From contig OX638351.1 in NCBI GenBank assembly GCA_951813565.1, positions 3,648,001-3,712,000 on the forward strand: 64,000 nt of DNA. The letters are read 5' to 3'. The position numbers were made by a program, and so were the translations under genes. The notes under the pieces are model-generated. The model did not search any database. It was given only the letters and a program-made list of their open reading frames with translations, and was not told the origin of the DNA. This document shows positions 21,203-28,117 of this stretch, one piece after another (the stretch's first letter is position 1; every line of letters begins with the position of its first letter). The stretch comes from an uncultured Poribacteria bacterium (lineage in GTDB: Bacteria > Poribacteria > WGA-4E > WGA-3G).

Positions 21203-21295
21203 ATCCTATTCATACCAACAAGGTATGAGGTTATAGCTTAAAACCAATTCTCGGATTTAGTTGCACTGTGGCTCGCCTTAATGAGGAATATGCGT

Positions 21296-22342
21296 ATGAA
21301 ACTGAAGGACATTTGTGAACACTTAGGTGGTGAGCTCTCTGGTGATGGTGAGATAGAAATTACTGGTGTTTCTGGCATCAAAGAAGCTGTCCCGAGTCAG
21401 ATTACCTTTGTCGCGAATTCGAAATATCTTGGTGCTATAGCTACTACGCAAGCATCGGCAATCATCATCGGGCGCGGTGTATCTGGAAATGGAAAAGCGA
21501 CTATTTGTGTTGACAATCCGTATTGGGCCTTCGTCAAAGTTTTGGAATTATTTGCTTGGGATACAGGGCAACAGACACAATCGGGCATCCATAAAACTGC
21601 CATTATAGGTGAGAACGTCACACTCGGAGAAGGTGTTGCAATACAGGCACACAGTGTAATCGGTGACAATGTTGAGATCGGTAGTGATACTGTCATTATG
21701 CCGCTTGTCTATATCGGGTCTGGCAGCAGAATTGGAAACGGTGGGTTAATCTACTCTCACGTTAGTATCCGTGAAAACATAACTATCGGAGATCGTGTTA
21801 TTATCCACTGTGGTGCGGTTATTGGAAGCGATGGCTTCGGTTTTATGCCTGATCCTGCCAACCATAGCCAATACAAAATTCCACAAATCGGCACAGTTAT
21901 TATTGAGGACGATGTTGAAATTGGCGCCAATACTACAATTGATAGAGCAACGCTTGCTGAAACGCTTATTAAAAGTGGGACAAAACTTGATAACCTTGTT
22001 CAAATCGCTCACAATGTGGTTATCGGGAAAGATTGTTGTTTGGCTGCACAGTCTGGTATTGCGGGGAGTGCCACTCTGGGCGATCGGATAAACATTGCTG
22101 GGCAATCTGGTGTAGTTGGACATTTAACACTTGGCGAAAACAGTGTGCTTTACGCTAAATCCGCAATAACCAAAGATGTCCCTCCTGGAAGTCAACTCTC
22201 AGGATTTCCTGCCCGTCCACATAAACAGGAATTGCGGCTTCAAGCTTCCACCCGAAAATTACCTGCGCTACTCCAAGAGTTTACCCAACTCCAGAAACGT
22301 GTTGAGGAATTAGAAGCGAAACTGCAAGAATTGGAAGACTAA
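21296..22342 (+). CDS. lpxD: UDP-3-O-acyl-glucosamine N-acyltransferase
   Basis: Hexapeptide repeats, IGSDGFGF, VEIGANTTIDR and KLDNLVQIAHNV motifs. Confidence 0.95.
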   Translation: MKLKDICEHLGGELSGDGEIEITGVSGIKEAVPSQITFVANSKYLGAIATTQASAIIIGRGVSGNGKATICVDNPYWAFVKVLELFAWDTGQQTQSGIHKTAIIGENVTLGEGVAIQAHSVIGDNVEIGSDTVIMPLVYIGSGSRIGNGGLIYSHVSIRENITIGDRVIIHCGAVIGSDGFGFMPDPANHSQYKIPQIGTVIIEDDVEIGANTTIDRATLAETLIKSGTKLDNLVQIAHNVVIGKDCCLAAQSGIAGSATLGDRINIAGQSGVVGHLTLGENSVLYAKSAITKDVPPGSQLSGFPARPHKQELRLQASTRKLPALLQEFTQLQKRVEELEAKLQELED

Positions 22343-22424
22343 CGAGTTGTACTAAATAACCATTTGTAGAACTTTATTTCACAAAAGAAAATGTTTGTAA
22401 GTCATTATCATATATTTATATGTT

Positions 22425-22693
22425 CTTCAGTCCCGACAAATGCCATAAGCGCATTTGGCGTTGATTTGGTAGGGACGGTATGTTTATAGAAAATGATTGG
22501 ACGAGCACTCTTTAGTCCCGACAAATGCCGGACGGGGAATGCCAAAAGGCATTCATACCCGGTGAATGACTAAAGACGAATGCGCTTGGTAGAATACGCT
22601 TTTGGTATTCTACATGATTCGCCATGATTCATACCGTTGATTTCTTGATTTGGCGCATTTGGCGTTGATTTTGTAGGGACGATATGTTTATAG
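22425..22693. repeat. Two GTCCC..GGGAC hairpin repeats, each interrupted by CCAAATCAACG-type micro-elements (22436-22469; nested set at 22521-22673)
   Basis: The uninterrupted form GTCCCTACGGGAC is at 58242-58254. The nested block is the reverse complement of about 58066-58214. Confidence 0.75.
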
Positions 22694-22800
22694 CACAAAT
22701 GCAAATATATGTGAAAACCAACAAAACAAAATGTTAACTGGCACAAGTCGTAAGACTAATAATTGCCTTTTATAAACATACGATTGATCGGGATTAACAA

Positions 22801-23409
22801 ATGGTATTTGATAATAAACCGATATCTGAAATCACTGATCAAGATTTGAAAAAACTAATCGGTAGACAAGAAGAAAATTTATGGATTGATTTTAAGGAGG
22901 AGCACTACCAAGGATACAAAACTCACCATGAGATATATATATATAGACGTGAGATATGCAAAGATGTTACTGCAATGGCTAATGCTGAAGGTGGATATAT
23001 CCTTATTGGTGTTGATTAAAAAAACAAGATCGCAAAAGAATTTGTTGATATCCTTGATGCAGATGGAAAAGCAGATAGTATCTATAAAACTTGCCAACAA
23101 CATATAGTTACACGAATCGTAAAATTAAAAGTAAAACCATATAAATTGAGATTGTCGGCTCGAGAAGTTAACCTTATAATTATTCATATTCCTTTTAGTG
23201 AAAATCGTCCTCACGGTTTTAATTCGAATGGGACACTCAATTTTGTAAAGCGGTATGGAGATACTACAAAAGAATTTCAGATAGAAGAGTTCAGGCACGA
23301 ACTTTTAGCACGACATCATTTGCCATTCATGGATGACATTAGAGGGCAGTTGGATAGGATTGAAAGTCACACCACAATTATTTTAAAGGAAATCGGAGAG
23401 AACAAGTGA
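22801..23409 (+). pseudogene. Schlafen/AlbA_2 domain protein interrupted by an in-frame TAA (23017-23019)
   Basis: EENLWIDFKE and KDVTAMANAEGGYILIGVD* precede the stop. The same frame continues to IIIHIP..RPH..FVKRYGDTT. Confidence 0.78.
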
Positions 23410-24113
23410 ATTCGCTTTCGGCAAGATGCAATTCTTTTGTTAAAGTTATATCCGACCAACCCTATTATCACATCTTCGCGTTACCAAACGAATCCAATGG
23501 AAAAGTTGTACCTACCGAAGATCAACGTATACGCGATATTTTGCATAATCCACCGAACAAACGTTGGGCAGGTTTTGGTGTTACAGGACTATTGGAACGG
23601 GACGAGCATCAATGGGAAGAGGGCATAGAAGGAAACAATGTAACCGGAGGGCAAATTACCTTACTAAAGAATGGATATTTTGAAGTTATATGTCCTATCA
23701 ATATCCAGTTTCAAAGAGGATGGAATTCCCCTCAATTTGCAATTCCTAAATCTGTAAAATGGCTGTACCCGTATGTAGTCATTGAGTTTCCTGTCTCATT
23801 CATGCGATTAGTGAAGGCGATTTACGGTAAGTCTGATATTGACTCTGGTGTAACCATAGAACAGTACTACCATAATATCACAGGATATGCTTTGCCAGAG
23901 GGACCACCTACCTATCCTACGTTTGGGGCATTTCTGGATGAGAGAGGTGTGTACGAAGGGACATCCTCTATTCACTCTGTGCAACAGGTTCTCAATAATT
24001 TTATCCCTGACCATGTAGCTTACGATCTGGTGGTAGACGTGTACGCCAAATTTGGATTAGGTGCTAAAACAATTCCAGCGTTTGATGAAAACAAAAAATT
24101 TATTTTAGAATAG
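23406..24113 (+). CDS. Hypothetical protein translationally coupled to the AlbA_2 gene
   Basis: 235-aa ORF whose GTG overlaps the upstream TGA (GTGA). RBS GGAGA. Confidence 0.7.
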   Translation: MNSLSARCNSFVKVISDQPYYHIFALPNESNGKVVPTEDQRIRDILHNPPNKRWAGFGVTGLLERDEHQWEEGIEGNNVTGGQITLLKNGYFEVICPINIQFQRGWNSPQFAIPKSVKWLYPYVVIEFPVSFMRLVKAIYGKSDIDSGVTIEQYYHNITGYALPEGPPTYPTFGAFLDERGVYEGTSSIHSVQQVLNNFIPDHVAYDLVVDVYAKFGLGAKTIPAFDENKKFILE

Positions 24114-24332: not shown

Positions 24333-25187
24333 ATGAAAACGTTGTTAGCGTATGTTGAACTTGCCCGTCCACTTAATGGAATCATTGCTTTTATCTCAGC
24401 GTGGTTGGGTGGTATGTTTGCAAGCGGTAAACCATTGGAACTCTTCACTGATGTAAAACTGATATATGTTTCTATTGCTGCCCTCCTTTTACTTTCCGCT
24501 GGAAATGCAATAAATGATTACTGCGATTATAACATTGATAAGATCAACAGATCTCAACGTCCACTTCCTTCTGGACGTATGCCGCAGCGAAACGCACTAA
24601 TTTTTGCACTTATTCTAATAGCAATCGGAATTGGACTCGGCACACTGATTAATATATATGCGGTGTACATAGCGGTTCTTGTTTCAGCACTGCTTGTGAG
24701 TTATGCTATCTGGCTAAAACGCACCCCATTCGTTGGAAATTTAGTTGTTGGCAGTTTGACCAGTTTAACTTTTATTTCTGGTGGTATAGCGATCAGTTCT
24801 GTGCAAGGCACTATTATCCCAGCAATTTTTGCTTTTTTGTTCACAACTGCAAGAGAAATTGTTAAAGACCTTGAGGATACAGAAGGGGATCTAAAAGACA
24901 ATGTGAAGACACTTGCGATTCTCAACCCACGACTCGCAGTGGCGATAGCATTGAGTTTTATGGTGTCGGTTATAATATTTAGTCCAATGCCATATCTATA
25001 CGGGTGGTATACTTGGCACTATTTAGTTGCTATTGTAATAGGTGTTGACCTTGTGCTAATCGGTTTAGGAATTCAACTCTCAAGAGATTTTTCAAAAGCA
25101 AGCTGTGCGTTCATCCAACGTTGGATGAAGTGGGACATATTTGTGGGATTAGGTGCAATCTATCTTGGAACTATTTTTCAAAGGTAA
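24333..25187 (+). CDS. UbiA-family prenyltransferase, digeranylgeranylglyceryl phosphate (DGGGP) synthase-like
   Basis: LARPLN, AGNAINDYCDYNIDKINRSQRPLPSG, LKRTPFVGNLVVG and AREIVKDLEDTEGD..KTL motifs are typical of the DGGGPS clade. Confidence 0.8.
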   Translation: MKTLLAYVELARPLNGIIAFISAWLGGMFASGKPLELFTDVKLIYVSIAALLLLSAGNAINDYCDYNIDKINRSQRPLPSGRMPQRNALIFALILIAIGIGLGTLINIYAVYIAVLVSALLVSYAIWLKRTPFVGNLVVGSLTSLTFISGGIAISSVQGTIIPAIFAFLFTTAREIVKDLEDTEGDLKDNVKTLAILNPRLAVAIALSFMVSVIIFSPMPYLYGWYTWHYLVAIVIGVDLVLIGLGIQLSRDFSKASCAFIQRWMKWDIFVGLGAIYLGTIFQR

Positions 25188-25225
25188 CGAAGAGGCGGTA
25201 ATAGGCCGCCGCCGTAATAACAGCA

Positions 25226-26452
25226 TTGGTAAAATACGATAAGTTAATTGCATTTTTAGAAAAAATAGACCCGAATACTGAAGAAGTGCTTCACTTTAAA
25301 CAAATATACCATTCCTATACTAAGACAGGTGAATGGCAACCTACTTATCAGATTTTTACTTCCGGGTGGCACAATATAGAAGGTGCTATGCTGATGACAT
25401 CGGAGCGTAAATTAGATGCTGATTATCGGGTCTATGTAACTGCTACAACTGAACGGAGTTTAAGAGAACTACTGCTTGCTTTTCCAAGGCGAAGTGTAGG
25501 AATGTTTCGCATGACAGAAAAATGGATAGAAGAAAGGATGCATGACATATTGGAAGGCAATAGTGTACAAACAGATTCAGGGACGTATTATCGCGGTGTT
25601 AAACGGGGGAGTCATGCGGAAGCAGAACAACGAACCGTCTCAAAAAGAAAGGATGCAATCGCATCTCATATCCGTAAATTAGCATCCTTAAAAGGCAAAC
25701 ATGAATATTCACAGTTTATTGTTGAAGGTGAAATGATGGTGGAACGTGCTGTTGCGGATGGGTTACCTGTTGAAACAATTCTCTATACCGCTAATTTCGT
25801 TTCAACATCGGACGGAGTAGATTTCCTAAAACGTGTAGCTGAGGAGAATCTCTCCTGCTATCTGGTTAACGACGGTGTAATGGGGTCAGTCACAACAACA
25901 CGTCCAGTGCCTTCAATAGTCGCTTCGGTGCATCTTAACTATCCACCCTTTTTGGCTGAATCAGGACAACTTAATTTTCACTTCAGCGCAGATTGCACCT
26001 TGCTTATCGTTGAAAATGTTAGTAATCCCGATAATCTTGGGATGACGTTACGTACCGCTGACGCGGCTGGTGTCTCTGCAGTTTTACTGAGCGGAGAAGG
26101 GGCAAGTCCTCTACATAAAAACTGCATTCGTGCCTCGCGCGGTGCTGTTGGTCGCCTACCCATGTTCCACATCCCAACGACTAATTCCGCAATTGAACAA
26201 CTCAAGGAATCAGGGTGGAAAGTTATTGGTGCTACAGCAAGCACAGAATACAATCTTTATACGATAGGATTTATTTCTCCTACTGCGATTGTTGTCGGCA
26301 ATGAAAATAGCGGTTTATCAGAGGAAACGCGTGAATGTTGTACAGAATTAGTTCGTATTCCTATGGCAGCTGGACAGTCCTCCTTAAATGTGGGCGTGGC
26401 AGCTGGTATTTTGCTTTATGAATTAGCGCGACAAAAGTTGACACAATCATGA
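25226..26452 (+). CDS. SpoU/TrmH-family RNA methyltransferase with an N-terminal extension
   Basis: NPDNLGMTLRTADAAG, VVGNENSGLS and IPMAAGQSSLNVGVAAGI SPOUT motifs. Confidence 0.88.
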   Translation: MVKYDKLIAFLEKIDPNTEEVLHFKQIYHSYTKTGEWQPTYQIFTSGWHNIEGAMLMTSERKLDADYRVYVTATTERSLRELLLAFPRRSVGMFRMTEKWIEERMHDILEGNSVQTDSGTYYRGVKRGSHAEAEQRTVSKRKDAIASHIRKLASLKGKHEYSQFIVEGEMMVERAVADGLPVETILYTANFVSTSDGVDFLKRVAEENLSCYLVNDGVMGSVTTTRPVPSIVASVHLNYPPFLAESGQLNFHFSADCTLLIVENVSNPDNLGMTLRTADAAGVSAVLLSGEGASPLHKNCIRASRGAVGRLPMFHIPTTNSAIEQLKESGWKVIGATASTEYNLYTIGFISPTAIVVGNENSGLSEETRECCTELVRIPMAAGQSSLNVGVAAGILLYELARQKLTQS

Positions 26453-26459
26453 CTTCAAT

Positions 26460-26488
26460 TTGACAAATTGATCAGAAGATGGTAAAAT
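26460..26488 (+). promoter_or_regulatory. Strong sigma70-like promoter upstream of GGGPS-grpE-dnaJ
   Basis: TTGACA, 17-bp spacer ending in TGG (extended -10), then TAAAAT. Confidence 0.6.
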
Positions 26489-26567
26489 TGTTTAGTTTTG
26501 TGAAGAGATGTAGACAAGTTACAGGTTTTATAACTTTAGGCATTAAATAACTAAGGAACGTTCGCAT

Positions 26568-27314
26568 TTGGCATCACGTTGTATTCTAAAATATTTACAC
26601 AAGGTCCTCGAAAAACAGAATGCTGGTTATATCGTTCTGATTGATCCCGAAGGGTGTGAGGTAGAAAAATGCGCTAAACTTGCTTGTGAAGTTGAACGAG
26701 CAGGGGCAGACGCTATTTTGCTTGGTGGTAGTCTGTTGACTACTGACCTGCATCCAATTGCAGCAACCCTAAAATCAGAAACAGCAATACCTATTATTCT
26801 TTTCCCAGGGGATTCGATGCACCTTACACCCCACGCAGATGCTATTCTCTATATGAGCCTAATCAGCGGACGAAATCCAAACTATCTTATTGGTGAACAA
26901 GTCAAAGCAGCACCTTGGATTCAACGGTATGGCTTGCAACCTATCCCCACCGGCTATATGCTTATTGAAGGAGGCAATCGAACCGCAGTTGAATTTATGA
27001 GCGGCACAGTGCCTATCCCTCGCGATAAACCTGACATAGCGGGACCACACGCATTGGCTGCGCAGTATCTCGGAATGCGGTTGGTCTATTTAGAAGCTGG
27101 AAGTGGTGCTGAATTTCCTGTACCTAACATTATGATTTCAAGTGTAAAAGCTCAAATTGAAATTCCACTGATTGTCGGCGGTGGCATACGAACCCCGGAA
27201 ATTGCTGCGGAGAAAGTTAATGCTGGTGCCGATTTTATAGTCACAGGTAATATACTTGAAAAGAGTGGTTCCTTTGAGCTGATGAAGCAGTTTGCAGATG
27301 CTGTTCATGGGTAA
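26568..27314 (+). CDS. Geranylgeranylglyceryl phosphate synthase (GGGPS/PcrB family, group II-like)
   Basis: LIDPE, DAILLGGS, LFPG, MSLISGRNPNYLIGEQV, PTGYMLIEGG, YLEAGSGA and VGGGIRT motifs. Confidence 0.92.
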   Translation: MASRCILKYLHKVLEKQNAGYIVLIDPEGCEVEKCAKLACEVERAGADAILLGGSLLTTDLHPIAATLKSETAIPIILFPGDSMHLTPHADAILYMSLISGRNPNYLIGEQVKAAPWIQRYGLQPIPTGYMLIEGGNRTAVEFMSGTVPIPRDKPDIAGPHALAAQYLGMRLVYLEAGSGAEFPVPNIMISSVKAQIEIPLIVGGGIRTPEIAAEKVNAGADFIVTGNILEKSGSFELMKQFADAVHG

Positions 27315-27385: not shown

Positions 27386-28117
27386 ATGTCTAAAAATAAT
27401 GAGGTAGTAATAGAAATAGAGACAGAGAAAGAAAACAGTAAGAAACCCGATTTTCTCATTGATGAATCTGAAGAAGATACGGATGCATCTGCAGAAACGG
27501 ATGTTGAAGCAGAAGAACGTACATTAGAGACCCTTGAAACTGAACTTGAGGCACTCAAAGAAGACTTTAAAAAACAACTTGAAGCAGTTGCCGAATCCGA
27601 GCGTGAGCAGTATCAGGAAGAACGCGAACGTTTGTTACGGACCGCTGCTGAAGCCGAAAATATAAAAAAACGGGTGGAAATAGAAGCACAGAAACAACTC
27701 AAGTTTGCTAACAAAAACATTATTGAAGGACTGATTCCGGTATTAGATAGTTTTGAGGCAGCGATTAAAAGCGTTGATGGGAAGGTTGAAACGAACGAGA
27801 CCCCATCAGATTTCCTAAACTTCAGCGAAGGAGTACAGTTAGTTCATAAACAACTCTTAGATGTTCTGAAAATACACGGACTTACTCCTATTGAAGCGTC
27901 CGGTGGTCCGTTTGACCCGAATCAGCATGAAGCGGTCTTTGCGACGGAATCCGATGAAGTTCCAGAGGGAAATGTGATAGAAGAATTCAGATGCGGTTAC
28001 CAATTACACGATCAGATTCTTCGTGCCGCACAGGTCGTGGTTTCTAAAGGAAAATCTGAGCAGCCTCCACCTAAGGAAAATAAGACAGAAGAAACTGAAA
28101 ACACCACCGAAAATTAA
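27386..28117 (+). CDS. grpE: Nucleotide exchange factor GrpE
   Basis: RTAAEAENIKKR, FDPNQHEAV and GYQLHDQILRAAQVVV motifs. Confidence 0.93.
   Translation: MSKNNEVVIEIETEKENSKKPDFLIDESEEDTDASAETDVEAEERTLETLETELEALKEDFKKQLEAVAESEREQYQEERERLLRTAAEAENIKKRVEIEAQKQLKFANKNIIEGLIPVLDSFEAAIKSVDGKVETNETPSDFLNFSEGVQLVHKQLLDVLKIHGLTPIEASGGPFDPNQHEAVFATESDEVPEGNVIEEFRCGYQLHDQILRAAQVVVSKGKSEQPPPKENKTEETENTTEN

Follow-up and report, generated by a model that had tools for sequence, protein, structure and literature searches.

A linked pair of predicted archaeal-type ether-lipid synthases in an uncultured Poribacteria bacterium, probable core of an ancestral cassette for archaeol-type lipids

Can a bacterium that makes lipid A also make isoprenoid ether lipids of the archaeal type? 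The question is raised by a stretch of 64,000 nucleotides (the window) from an uncultured Poribacteria bacterium (contig OX638351.1, positions 3,648,001 to 3,712,000), in which a UbiA-family prenyltransferase gene resembling digeranylgeranylglyceryl phosphate (DGGGP) synthase (DGGGPS) and a gene for a geranylgeranylglyceryl phosphate (GGGP) synthase (GGGPS) lie close together. Co-localised GGGPS and DGGGPS are described in Ca. Cloacimonetes, with homologues in Fibrobacteres-Chlorobi-Bacteroidetes (FCB) bacteria (Villanueva et al. 2021, PMC7852524), and the Cloacimonetes pair made phosphatidylglycerol (PG)-archaeol carrying eight double bonds in Escherichia coli; according to the same paper, no bacterium had been shown to have a natural mixed archaeal/bacterial membrane. 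Our best reading takes the two genes for the core that remains of an archaeol-lipid cassette ancestral to Poribacteria, and we consider it likely that the organism makes an unsaturated archaeol-type phospholipid, via GGGP, DGGGP and the bacterial enzyme CdsA, beside ester lipids and lipid A. This reading is built on observed features: the genes, their residues, their conservation and co-loss, and the gene inventory of the genome.

The genome (G000) is a single contig of 5.43 Mb with a GC content of 0.431 and is 95% complete. The initial annotation, made from the letters of the window, had taken the organism for a lipid A producer and probably a member of Poribacteria, and it was right on both counts. 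The NCBI name of a UbiA homologue with 76% identity is DGGGPS of Ca. Poribacteria, a GGGPS homologue with 66% identity is likewise assigned to Poribacteria, and Poribacteria database records carry the same locus; moreover LpxA, LpxC (as LpxC-FabZ), LpxD and LpxB, which the search covered, all score over their cut-offs.

The GGGPS is of group II, as had been proposed. It passes TIGR01769 (221.6 against a cut-off of 161.55) and PRK04169.1-2 (288.8 against 247), and the 222-289 bits reached on group II models compare with 24-45 bits on group I/PcrB models. Its best matches among solved structures are the group II enzymes 4mm1 (E 7e-55) and 4jej (E 1.6e-54), as against 1e-6 to 1e-7 for PcrB/group I. 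The residues D26, S55, Y130, Y174 and E176 are present, together with F143, which aligns with W141 of the Mt enzyme, the aromatic anchor of hexameric forms. D26, Y130, Y174 and E176, equivalent to Mt D25, Y134, Y178 and E180 (the Mg-binding Asp and the Tyr/Tyr/Glu triad), are kept in 16/16 aligned Poribacteria sequences. The ratio of nonsynonymous to synonymous substitution (dN/dS) against the relative G036 is 0.106 for GGGPS and 0.125 for UbiA, near the values of neighbouring housekeeping genes; dS is saturated in most comparisons, the usable ones being those with G036, plus lpxD and UbiA against G105.

The UbiA reading frame can start at TTG 24327 or ATG 24333, both in frame, and ends at 25187; database copies begin at the ATG. 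The motifs quoted for the DGGGPS clade, RPLN, NDYCDYNIDKINRSQRPLPSG and AREIVKDLEDTEGD, are all there. The top NCBIfam models are the archaeal DGGGPS-type PRK12884 (210.8 bits) and PRK12882 (208.9 bits), about 100 bits over the next family, and the closest solved structure is Methanocaldococcus jannaschii DGGGPS (6m31, E 3.9e-37, versus 5e-8 for ChlG and 3.5e-4 for a UbiA). In TTG numbering, N63, D67, D71, Y126, K131, F149, D181, D184 and D188 correspond to M. jannaschii N62, D66, D70, Y125, K130, F148, D180, D183 and D187, whose roles (motifs and mutagenesis; F148 in the tunnel) are described in PMC9385802. Two M. jannaschii positions differ, I29 being Leu and S171 of tunnel 2 being Phe; all nine others are identical.

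A phylogeny of UbiA, the analysis that could have overturned the assignment, places the protein with DGGGPS-type proteins and not with the genome's MqnP or CyoE, nor with ChlG. The FastTree tree has 166 sequences and 276 columns: 142 nearest representatives (eight fragments dropped), the query, 14 Poribacteria loci and nine references, with neither MenA nor a named Cloacimonetes sequence in the set. The query groups with all 14 Poribacteria loci in a 22-sequence clade (support 1.0), class-outsider genomes being basal in it. This clade lies inside a poorly resolved DGGGPS-like radiation, one part of which is an archaeal clade (0.99) with two named haloarchaeal sequences and the three that pass the archaeal cut-offs. 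Outside the DGGGPS-like group stand MqnP, CyoE, ChlG and the fourth UbiA of the genome. The fourth UbiA (L017:1441-2364:+; G000:C1:4979759-4980685) is divergent: its best model is also PRK12884 (138 bits), and equivalents of D66 and D180 are missing.

The two genes travel together through the phylum. In a survey of 151 Poribacteria genomes GGGPS occurs in 121 and UbiA in 122: both are found in 121 genomes, neither in 29, UbiA only in one (a genome in 230 contigs) and GGGPS only in none. In 100 of the 121 pair-bearing genomes UbiA precedes GGGPS on the same strand, at a distance of no more than 12 kb; 14 have the genes on different contigs, and seven far apart on one contig, both genes being kept even there. 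The pair can also sit away from lpxD, its usual upstream neighbour (G013, G036). A search for trmH, the gene between the two synthases, covered 29 selected genomes, of which 20 lack the pair, and shows it retained in six pair-less ones; since all six loci read lpxD-(AlbA_2, ORF)-trmH-grpE, where ORF is an open reading frame, both genes flanking trmH have been removed separately. Three of the six keep DNA remnants, and such loci are losses: in G064 the upstream region is directly joined to the last 130 nt of the UbiA gene, G074 has the same 3' remnant, and G077 has a 3' remnant of GGGPS. Both genes are a long-inherited feature of the phylum and are kept or lost together.

An older form of the locus can be recognised in deeper genera, where 15 fetched loci read DGGGPS-(trmH)-reductase-GGGPS; in most of them a ferredoxin gene precedes the reductase or, as in G002 and G006, is fused with it. 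This reductase scores above the TIGR02032 cut-off, and its nearest match is the digeranylgeranylglycerophospholipid (DGGGPL) reductase of Thermoplasma acidophilum (3oz2, E 1e-79); it is present in 41/151 genomes, all 41 among the 121 with the pair. Co-retention and co-loss, together with this ancestral cassette, lend further support to the ether-lipid interpretation. The genome search for a geranylgeranyl reductase that the initial annotation had suggested finds none in G000, where the best TIGR02032 match reaches 127 against a cut-off of 158.8 (tblastn E 4e-6); this gene, at G000:C1:4993601, is halogenase-like and was rejected. At the family's second reductase site G000 has uvrA, 228 bp and then a dnaJ-like gene. 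As the ferredoxin-reductase pair kept by relatives is lost here, the product would stay unsaturated, with eight double bonds.

The relatives' reductase is itself unusual and is a probable selenoenzyme. Its gene contains one in-frame TGA in 31/41 cases (in G112 also a TAG), no stop in eight, and two are unresolved. Among 25 fetched reductase loci the TGA stands at the column of the active-site Cys45 in 19 and Cys in the other six, the context of the UGA being PVR-U-AE (e.g. L032:7544-8731:+; also L029, L030, L034, L039-L048, L052-L055, L059). All 31 UGA genomes have selA, and the complete-family exceptions without it (G045, G139) have stop-free reductases. A hairpin 13 nt past the UGA is 94% paired, with seven compensatory cells and an invariant loop G; 0/500 shuffles score as high, a comparison in which related sequences can beat shuffles through descent. 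This hairpin fits the published rules for bacterial selenocysteine insertion sequences (bSECIS), and pair covariation alone separates UGA from Cys forms, z-scores of folding energy, computed for the 63 nt that follow the UGA, giving no separation. No non-Poribacteria locus with the reductase and the synthases within 8 kb is among the matches listed by a genome scan with the reductase alignment, no stop at the Cys column occurs in the non-Poribacteria reductase loci examined (46 of 80), and a literature search found no paper on a selenocysteine geranylgeranyl reductase. In G000 itself, a scan for TGA plus hairpin gives six matches, four of them selenoprotein-like (near 1806488(+), 4467097(+), 4232556(-) and 3198568(-) of G000:C1), of which three show a U-x-x-C-like motif; a TGA is found in selD too, and tRNA-Sec is present.

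In deep lineages (L026, L027, L049, L051, L057) a polysaccharide deacetylase, a second UbiA clade, a GT2 and a CehA/McbA-type metallohydrolase are often encoded between lpxD and DGGGPS. Such a neighbourhood would suit a diether of which little is made, serving to anchor or carry a surface glycoconjugate and not as bulk membrane lipid, and so would a dispensable pathway. We hold this to be unlikely: G000 and its family keep the pair without orthologues of the extra genes, G000 having no match for the second UbiA or the hydrolase and partial, family-level matches only for the GT2 and the deacetylase, and the pair can move away from lpxD, as in the two genomes mentioned above.

If the pair does make a membrane diether, the rest of the route can be sketched from the gene inventory. 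Geranylgeranyl diphosphate (GGPP) would be supplied by a short-chain prenyl synthase encoded elsewhere (G000:C1:708632-709696), which was found, with a long-chain synthase, in the search for polyprenyl synthases that had been recommended. Its best matches are archaeal IdsA/GGPP models, below cut-off, and it has a Trp five residues before the first Asp-rich motif; it occurs in 138/151 genomes, pair-less ones included, and since it does not track the pair it speaks for supply and not for coupling. A soluble, probably hexameric GGGPS would then ether-link GGPP to glycerol phosphate, giving GGGP, and the membrane-bound UbiA would add the second chain, giving DGGGP. Bacterial CdsA, present in all 151 genomes including G000, and CDP-alcohol phosphotransferases, of which G000 has three motifs, may activate DGGGP to cytidine diphosphate (CDP)-archaeol and add head groups in place of CarS. 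The resulting diether lipids would accompany ester phospholipids and lipid A as a component that can be dispensed with. Tes was not found in G000 (best match 58 bits against a cut-off of 450; the motif scan is empty), and tetraether synthesis is rejected for this genome on that ground; Tes homologues are reported in 10/29 Poribacteria metagenome-assembled genomes (PMC11868695). A phytoene-synthase-like gene is also present, and a cluster of GT2, acyltransferase and phytoene/HpnD-like synthase (L149; G000:C1:2867133-2870501) suggests glycosylated, acylated carotenoids as a second use of GGPP. Two public runs presumed to be RNA give next to no cover, which says nothing for or against expression.

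The ester half of the membrane requires equal attention. GpsA was found neither in G000 nor in any of 99 family genomes (33/151 in the phylum), PlsY is missing from G000 (6/151 in the phylum), and PlsX was not found in G000; with these standard entry enzymes not found, ester-lipid synthesis would depend on a PlsC-like gene next to cmk (92.5 bits against a cut-off of 102.95) and on an uncharacterised acyltransferase. The latter, L148 (L148:829-2046:-; G000:C1:5348957-5350171), is a 405-aa PF01553 protein of no NCBIfam family. It occurs in 130/151 genomes and not in any of the six PlsY-bearing ones, a distribution that suggests a candidate replacement for the first acyltransferase. G000 has three further PF01553 genes. 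These gaps give some colour to the idea that ether lipids are the main phospholipids of the lineage, the usual ester entry route being gone, and GpsA is present in every genome of the two family f3 genera from which the pair has mostly gone (g9 20/20, g11 1/1). We nevertheless find this very improbable. Nine family genomes lack the pair, GpsA and PlsY alike, so another route must exist, for which L148 is a candidate, and the PlsC-like gene and GlpK are present. As to the membrane mixed from ether lipids, ester lipids and lipopolysaccharide that had been proposed at the outset, the enzyme assignments, the phylum and the lipid A stand, and the mixture itself stays a proposal drawn from genes.

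Several points weigh against the preferred reading. The activities, the product, its amount, its place in the membrane and the stereochemistry of its backbone are predicted from genes, by analogy with archaeal enzymes and the Cloacimonetes pair. UbiA falls under all three archaeal DGGGPS cut-offs (PRK12882 208.9 < 296, PRK12883 173.9 < 353, PRK12884 210.8 < 269), and is not filed under these equivalogs; 3/142 of its nearest representatives pass them. In the tree, drawn from a set picked by similarity to the query, the node that separates ChlG has a support of 0.72 only. The GGGPS residue Asn228 departs from the Thr that a review names for group II; the 16 sequences have eight Asn, six Thr and two Ser there. 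Because Asn (Asn216) is the functional group I residue in this phosphate-binding loop, the substitution weakens the group II signature and would not touch activity. The losses are few, counting as about three separate events (in a g1 group, in g2 and in g9/g11) and not 29, kin not being independent, and the pair is dispensable, as its absence from 29/151 genomes indicates. EgsA/AraM was not found in G000, a candidate being present in 2/151 genomes, and GGGPS enzymes are reported to favour glycerol-1-phosphate (G1P), eightfold in Methanococcus maripaludis.

The low scores of UbiA bear on a further alternative, in which the coupling of the two genes is real and no diether is formed: the GGGPS mono-ether would be processed otherwise, as with Bacillus PcrB, and UbiA would prenylate a different acceptor. 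UbiA enzymes use many acceptors, and their shared Asp motifs reflect the prenyl donor (PMC9385802); scores below the archaeal cut-offs and the Phe in place of S171 fit this as well. Phe, on the other hand, is the commonest residue at the S171 column (70/158 relatives), and the clade-specific R14, N17, R176 and K180 are common to DGGGPS-type proteins and mostly not to outgroups. With a DGGGPL-type reductase inside the relatives' cassette and the Cloacimonetes precedent, which gave a diether (PMC7852524), we judge this alternative distinctly unlikely, and a diether remains the preferred product.

The source of the glycerol backbone can be approached in the same way. No G1P dehydrogenase or CarS had been noticed in the window; this is borne out, and neither was found in the rest of the genome. 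Four Fe-ADH_2 matches examined as possible G1P dehydrogenases are three Fe-alcohol dehydrogenases and AroB. The only genomes with an AraM/G1P dehydrogenase-like gene, G139 and G045 (L159, L160), also have PlsY and GpsA and are without selA. GlpK occurs in 151/151 genomes (in genus g8 in an open frame of about 1,090 aa, suggesting a fusion) and is the only recognisable source of glycerol phosphate, as glycerol-3-phosphate (G3P), in G000; on that account a G3P backbone is as plausible as an unrecognised G1P route. According to published enzymology, GGGPS prefers G1P and can use G3P, GGGP with a G3P backbone is a substrate for DGGGPS, and G1P is formed in E. coli without AraM. For FCB bacteria without a G1P dehydrogenase it was raised (PMC6431249) that the enzymes might run backwards, breaking down archaeal lipids from neighbours. 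The missing dehydrogenase and the universal GlpK would be in keeping with such a role here. Release of pyrophosphate, however, disfavours reverse prenyl transfer, saturated archaeal lipids cannot form the allylic cation, and the reductase in the cassette points to synthesis; among the readings considered, breakdown seems to us the least credible, and synthesis is retained.

A bolder version of the preferred reading may be stated, which we put forward as speculative and rather doubtful: the lineage would have a natural mixed membrane unlike any observed before, and a substantial share of it would consist of fully unsaturated archaeol-type phospholipids built on GlpK-derived G3P, beside lipid A and ester lipids from a non-canonical first acyltransferase, and sister lineages would saturate them by a ferredoxin-fed selenocysteine reductase of a type outside the list of a 2026 review.

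The coordinates of the locus are collected in Table 1.

Table 1. Features of the ether-lipid locus (positions in the window)
Feature	Position	Strand	Remarks
lpxD	21281..22342	+	TIGR01853 363.8 > 242.5; closes lolE-lolD-ilvE-bamA-skp-lpxD; upstream landmark
DGGGP-synthase-like UbiA prenyltransferase, 284 aa from ATG	24333..25187	+	predicted to form the second ether bond
SpoU/TrmH-family RNA methyltransferase (trmH), long N-terminal extension	25226..26452	+	Pfam SpoU_methylase
Sigma-70-like promoter, TTGACA-17-TAAAAT, 11/12, extended TG	26460..26488	+	ahead of GGGPS-grpE-dnaJ
Group II GGGP synthase, 248 aa	26568..27314	+	predicted to form the first ether bond
grpE, first of grpE-dnaJ-prmA	27386..28117	+	conserved downstream landmark

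The + strand of the window reads lolE-lolD-ilvE-bamA-skp-lpxD, a 2-kb interval, the UbiA gene, the TrmH-family gene, the GGGPS gene and grpE-dnaJ-prmA. This is the arrangement first described, a same-strand pair of intact frames with one TrmH gene between them, about 2.0 kb downstream of the end of lpxD; lpxD lies upstream of UbiA in most fetched loci of relatives, and the tie with bamA-skp-lpxD is one of conserved position, nothing more. The trmH gene is a passenger outside the ether-lipid pathway, since it is retained in six genomes without either prenyltransferase and is missing between the pair in G105 and deep lineages. The strong promoter-like site is the best of 17 in a scan in which 15.3 are expected by chance, so that the count alone is not significant; it is 92-95% conserved in five relatives that lost GGGPS and must therefore serve grpE-dnaJ at least. 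Co-transcription of GGGPS with these chaperone genes is likely, perhaps incidental. The gene order is reproduced in contigs of public runs from two studies, one carrying DGGGPS and trmH with four differences, the other trmH-GGGPS-grpE with none (this second run may be the source sample). The GC content of the locus is 0.40-0.43 as against 0.43 for the genome, and contamination or recent transfer is rejected on grounds of contiguity, GC and phylum-wide synteny. Within the 2-kb interval, positions 22370-22760 hold an intergenic repeat of a palindromic family, which BLAST finds as 446 pieces at about 286 genomic places and which reaches very high contig depth in public runs, and positions 22801-24113 a two-gene insert of a Schlafen/AlbA_2 gene and a 235-aa ORF of no Pfam family. 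In this genome the Schlafen/AlbA_2 gene is disrupted; G028 and G029 have an unbroken copy at the corresponding place, and another strain is different at the point of disruption.

Some sponges harbour abundant Poribacteria, and the question of a mixed membrane is therefore open to lipidomics. Octa-unsaturated archaeol, the product predicted where the reductase is missing, would be distinguishable from what co-occurring archaea make, saturated lipids or tetraethers, and natural controls exist within the phylum in close relatives with the pair and the reductase, with the pair only (G000) and with neither. If the relatives' reductase is indeed a selenoenzyme, it would link selenium to the saturation of membrane lipids. 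The pair in Cloacimonetes and FCB bacteria and the NCBI protein names were already known; the phylum-wide linkage and the natural losses are added here. A literature search found no paper tying Poribacteria to GGGPS or DGGGPS, the supplements of Villanueva et al. (2021), which possibly list Poribacteria, being outside its reach.

The system can finally be compared with those already known. With that of Cloacimonetes it shares (i) a group II GGGPS and a DGGGPS-like UbiA close together in a diderm bacterium; (ii) polyprenyl synthases, with CarS and EgsA/AraM absent and CdsA the likely stand-in; (iii) in the relatives of G000, a Euryarchaeota-like reductase. It differs in that G000 is without reductase, GpsA, PlsX and PlsY, whereas Cloacimonetes has gps, acyltransferases and reductases, and in that the relatives' reductase and ferredoxin lie inside the cassette, mostly with UGA at the active-site Cys. 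The phylum is also a different one, unnamed in the main text or preprint of PMC7852524, which restricts co-localisation among bacteria to Cloacimonetes. Linkage in 100/121 pair-bearing Poribacteria genomes contradicts that restriction and supports the same paper's guess that linkage is the ancestral state, Poribacteria being a phylum outside the FCB group where the genes are ancestral and linked. With the archaeal archaeol pathway (EgsA, GGGPS, DGGGPS, CarS and geranylgeranyl reductase, GGR; 4mm1, 6m31, 3oz2) it has in common the two enzymes that form the ether bonds, catalytic residues included, a short-chain prenyl synthase of archaeal likeness and, in relatives, a reductase next to a ferredoxin, as is the case in Methanosarcina; unlike it, G000 is without EgsA, CarS, Tes and reductase, the genes are dispensable and the host makes lipid A. 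Bacillus PcrB, the group Ib heptaprenylglyceryl phosphate synthase that works with AraM, belongs to the same TIM-barrel family and likewise forms a bacterial ether bond to glycerol phosphate, but the enzyme described here is of group II (at most 29 bits on the heptaprenyl model) and has a DGGGPS-like partner and no AraM.

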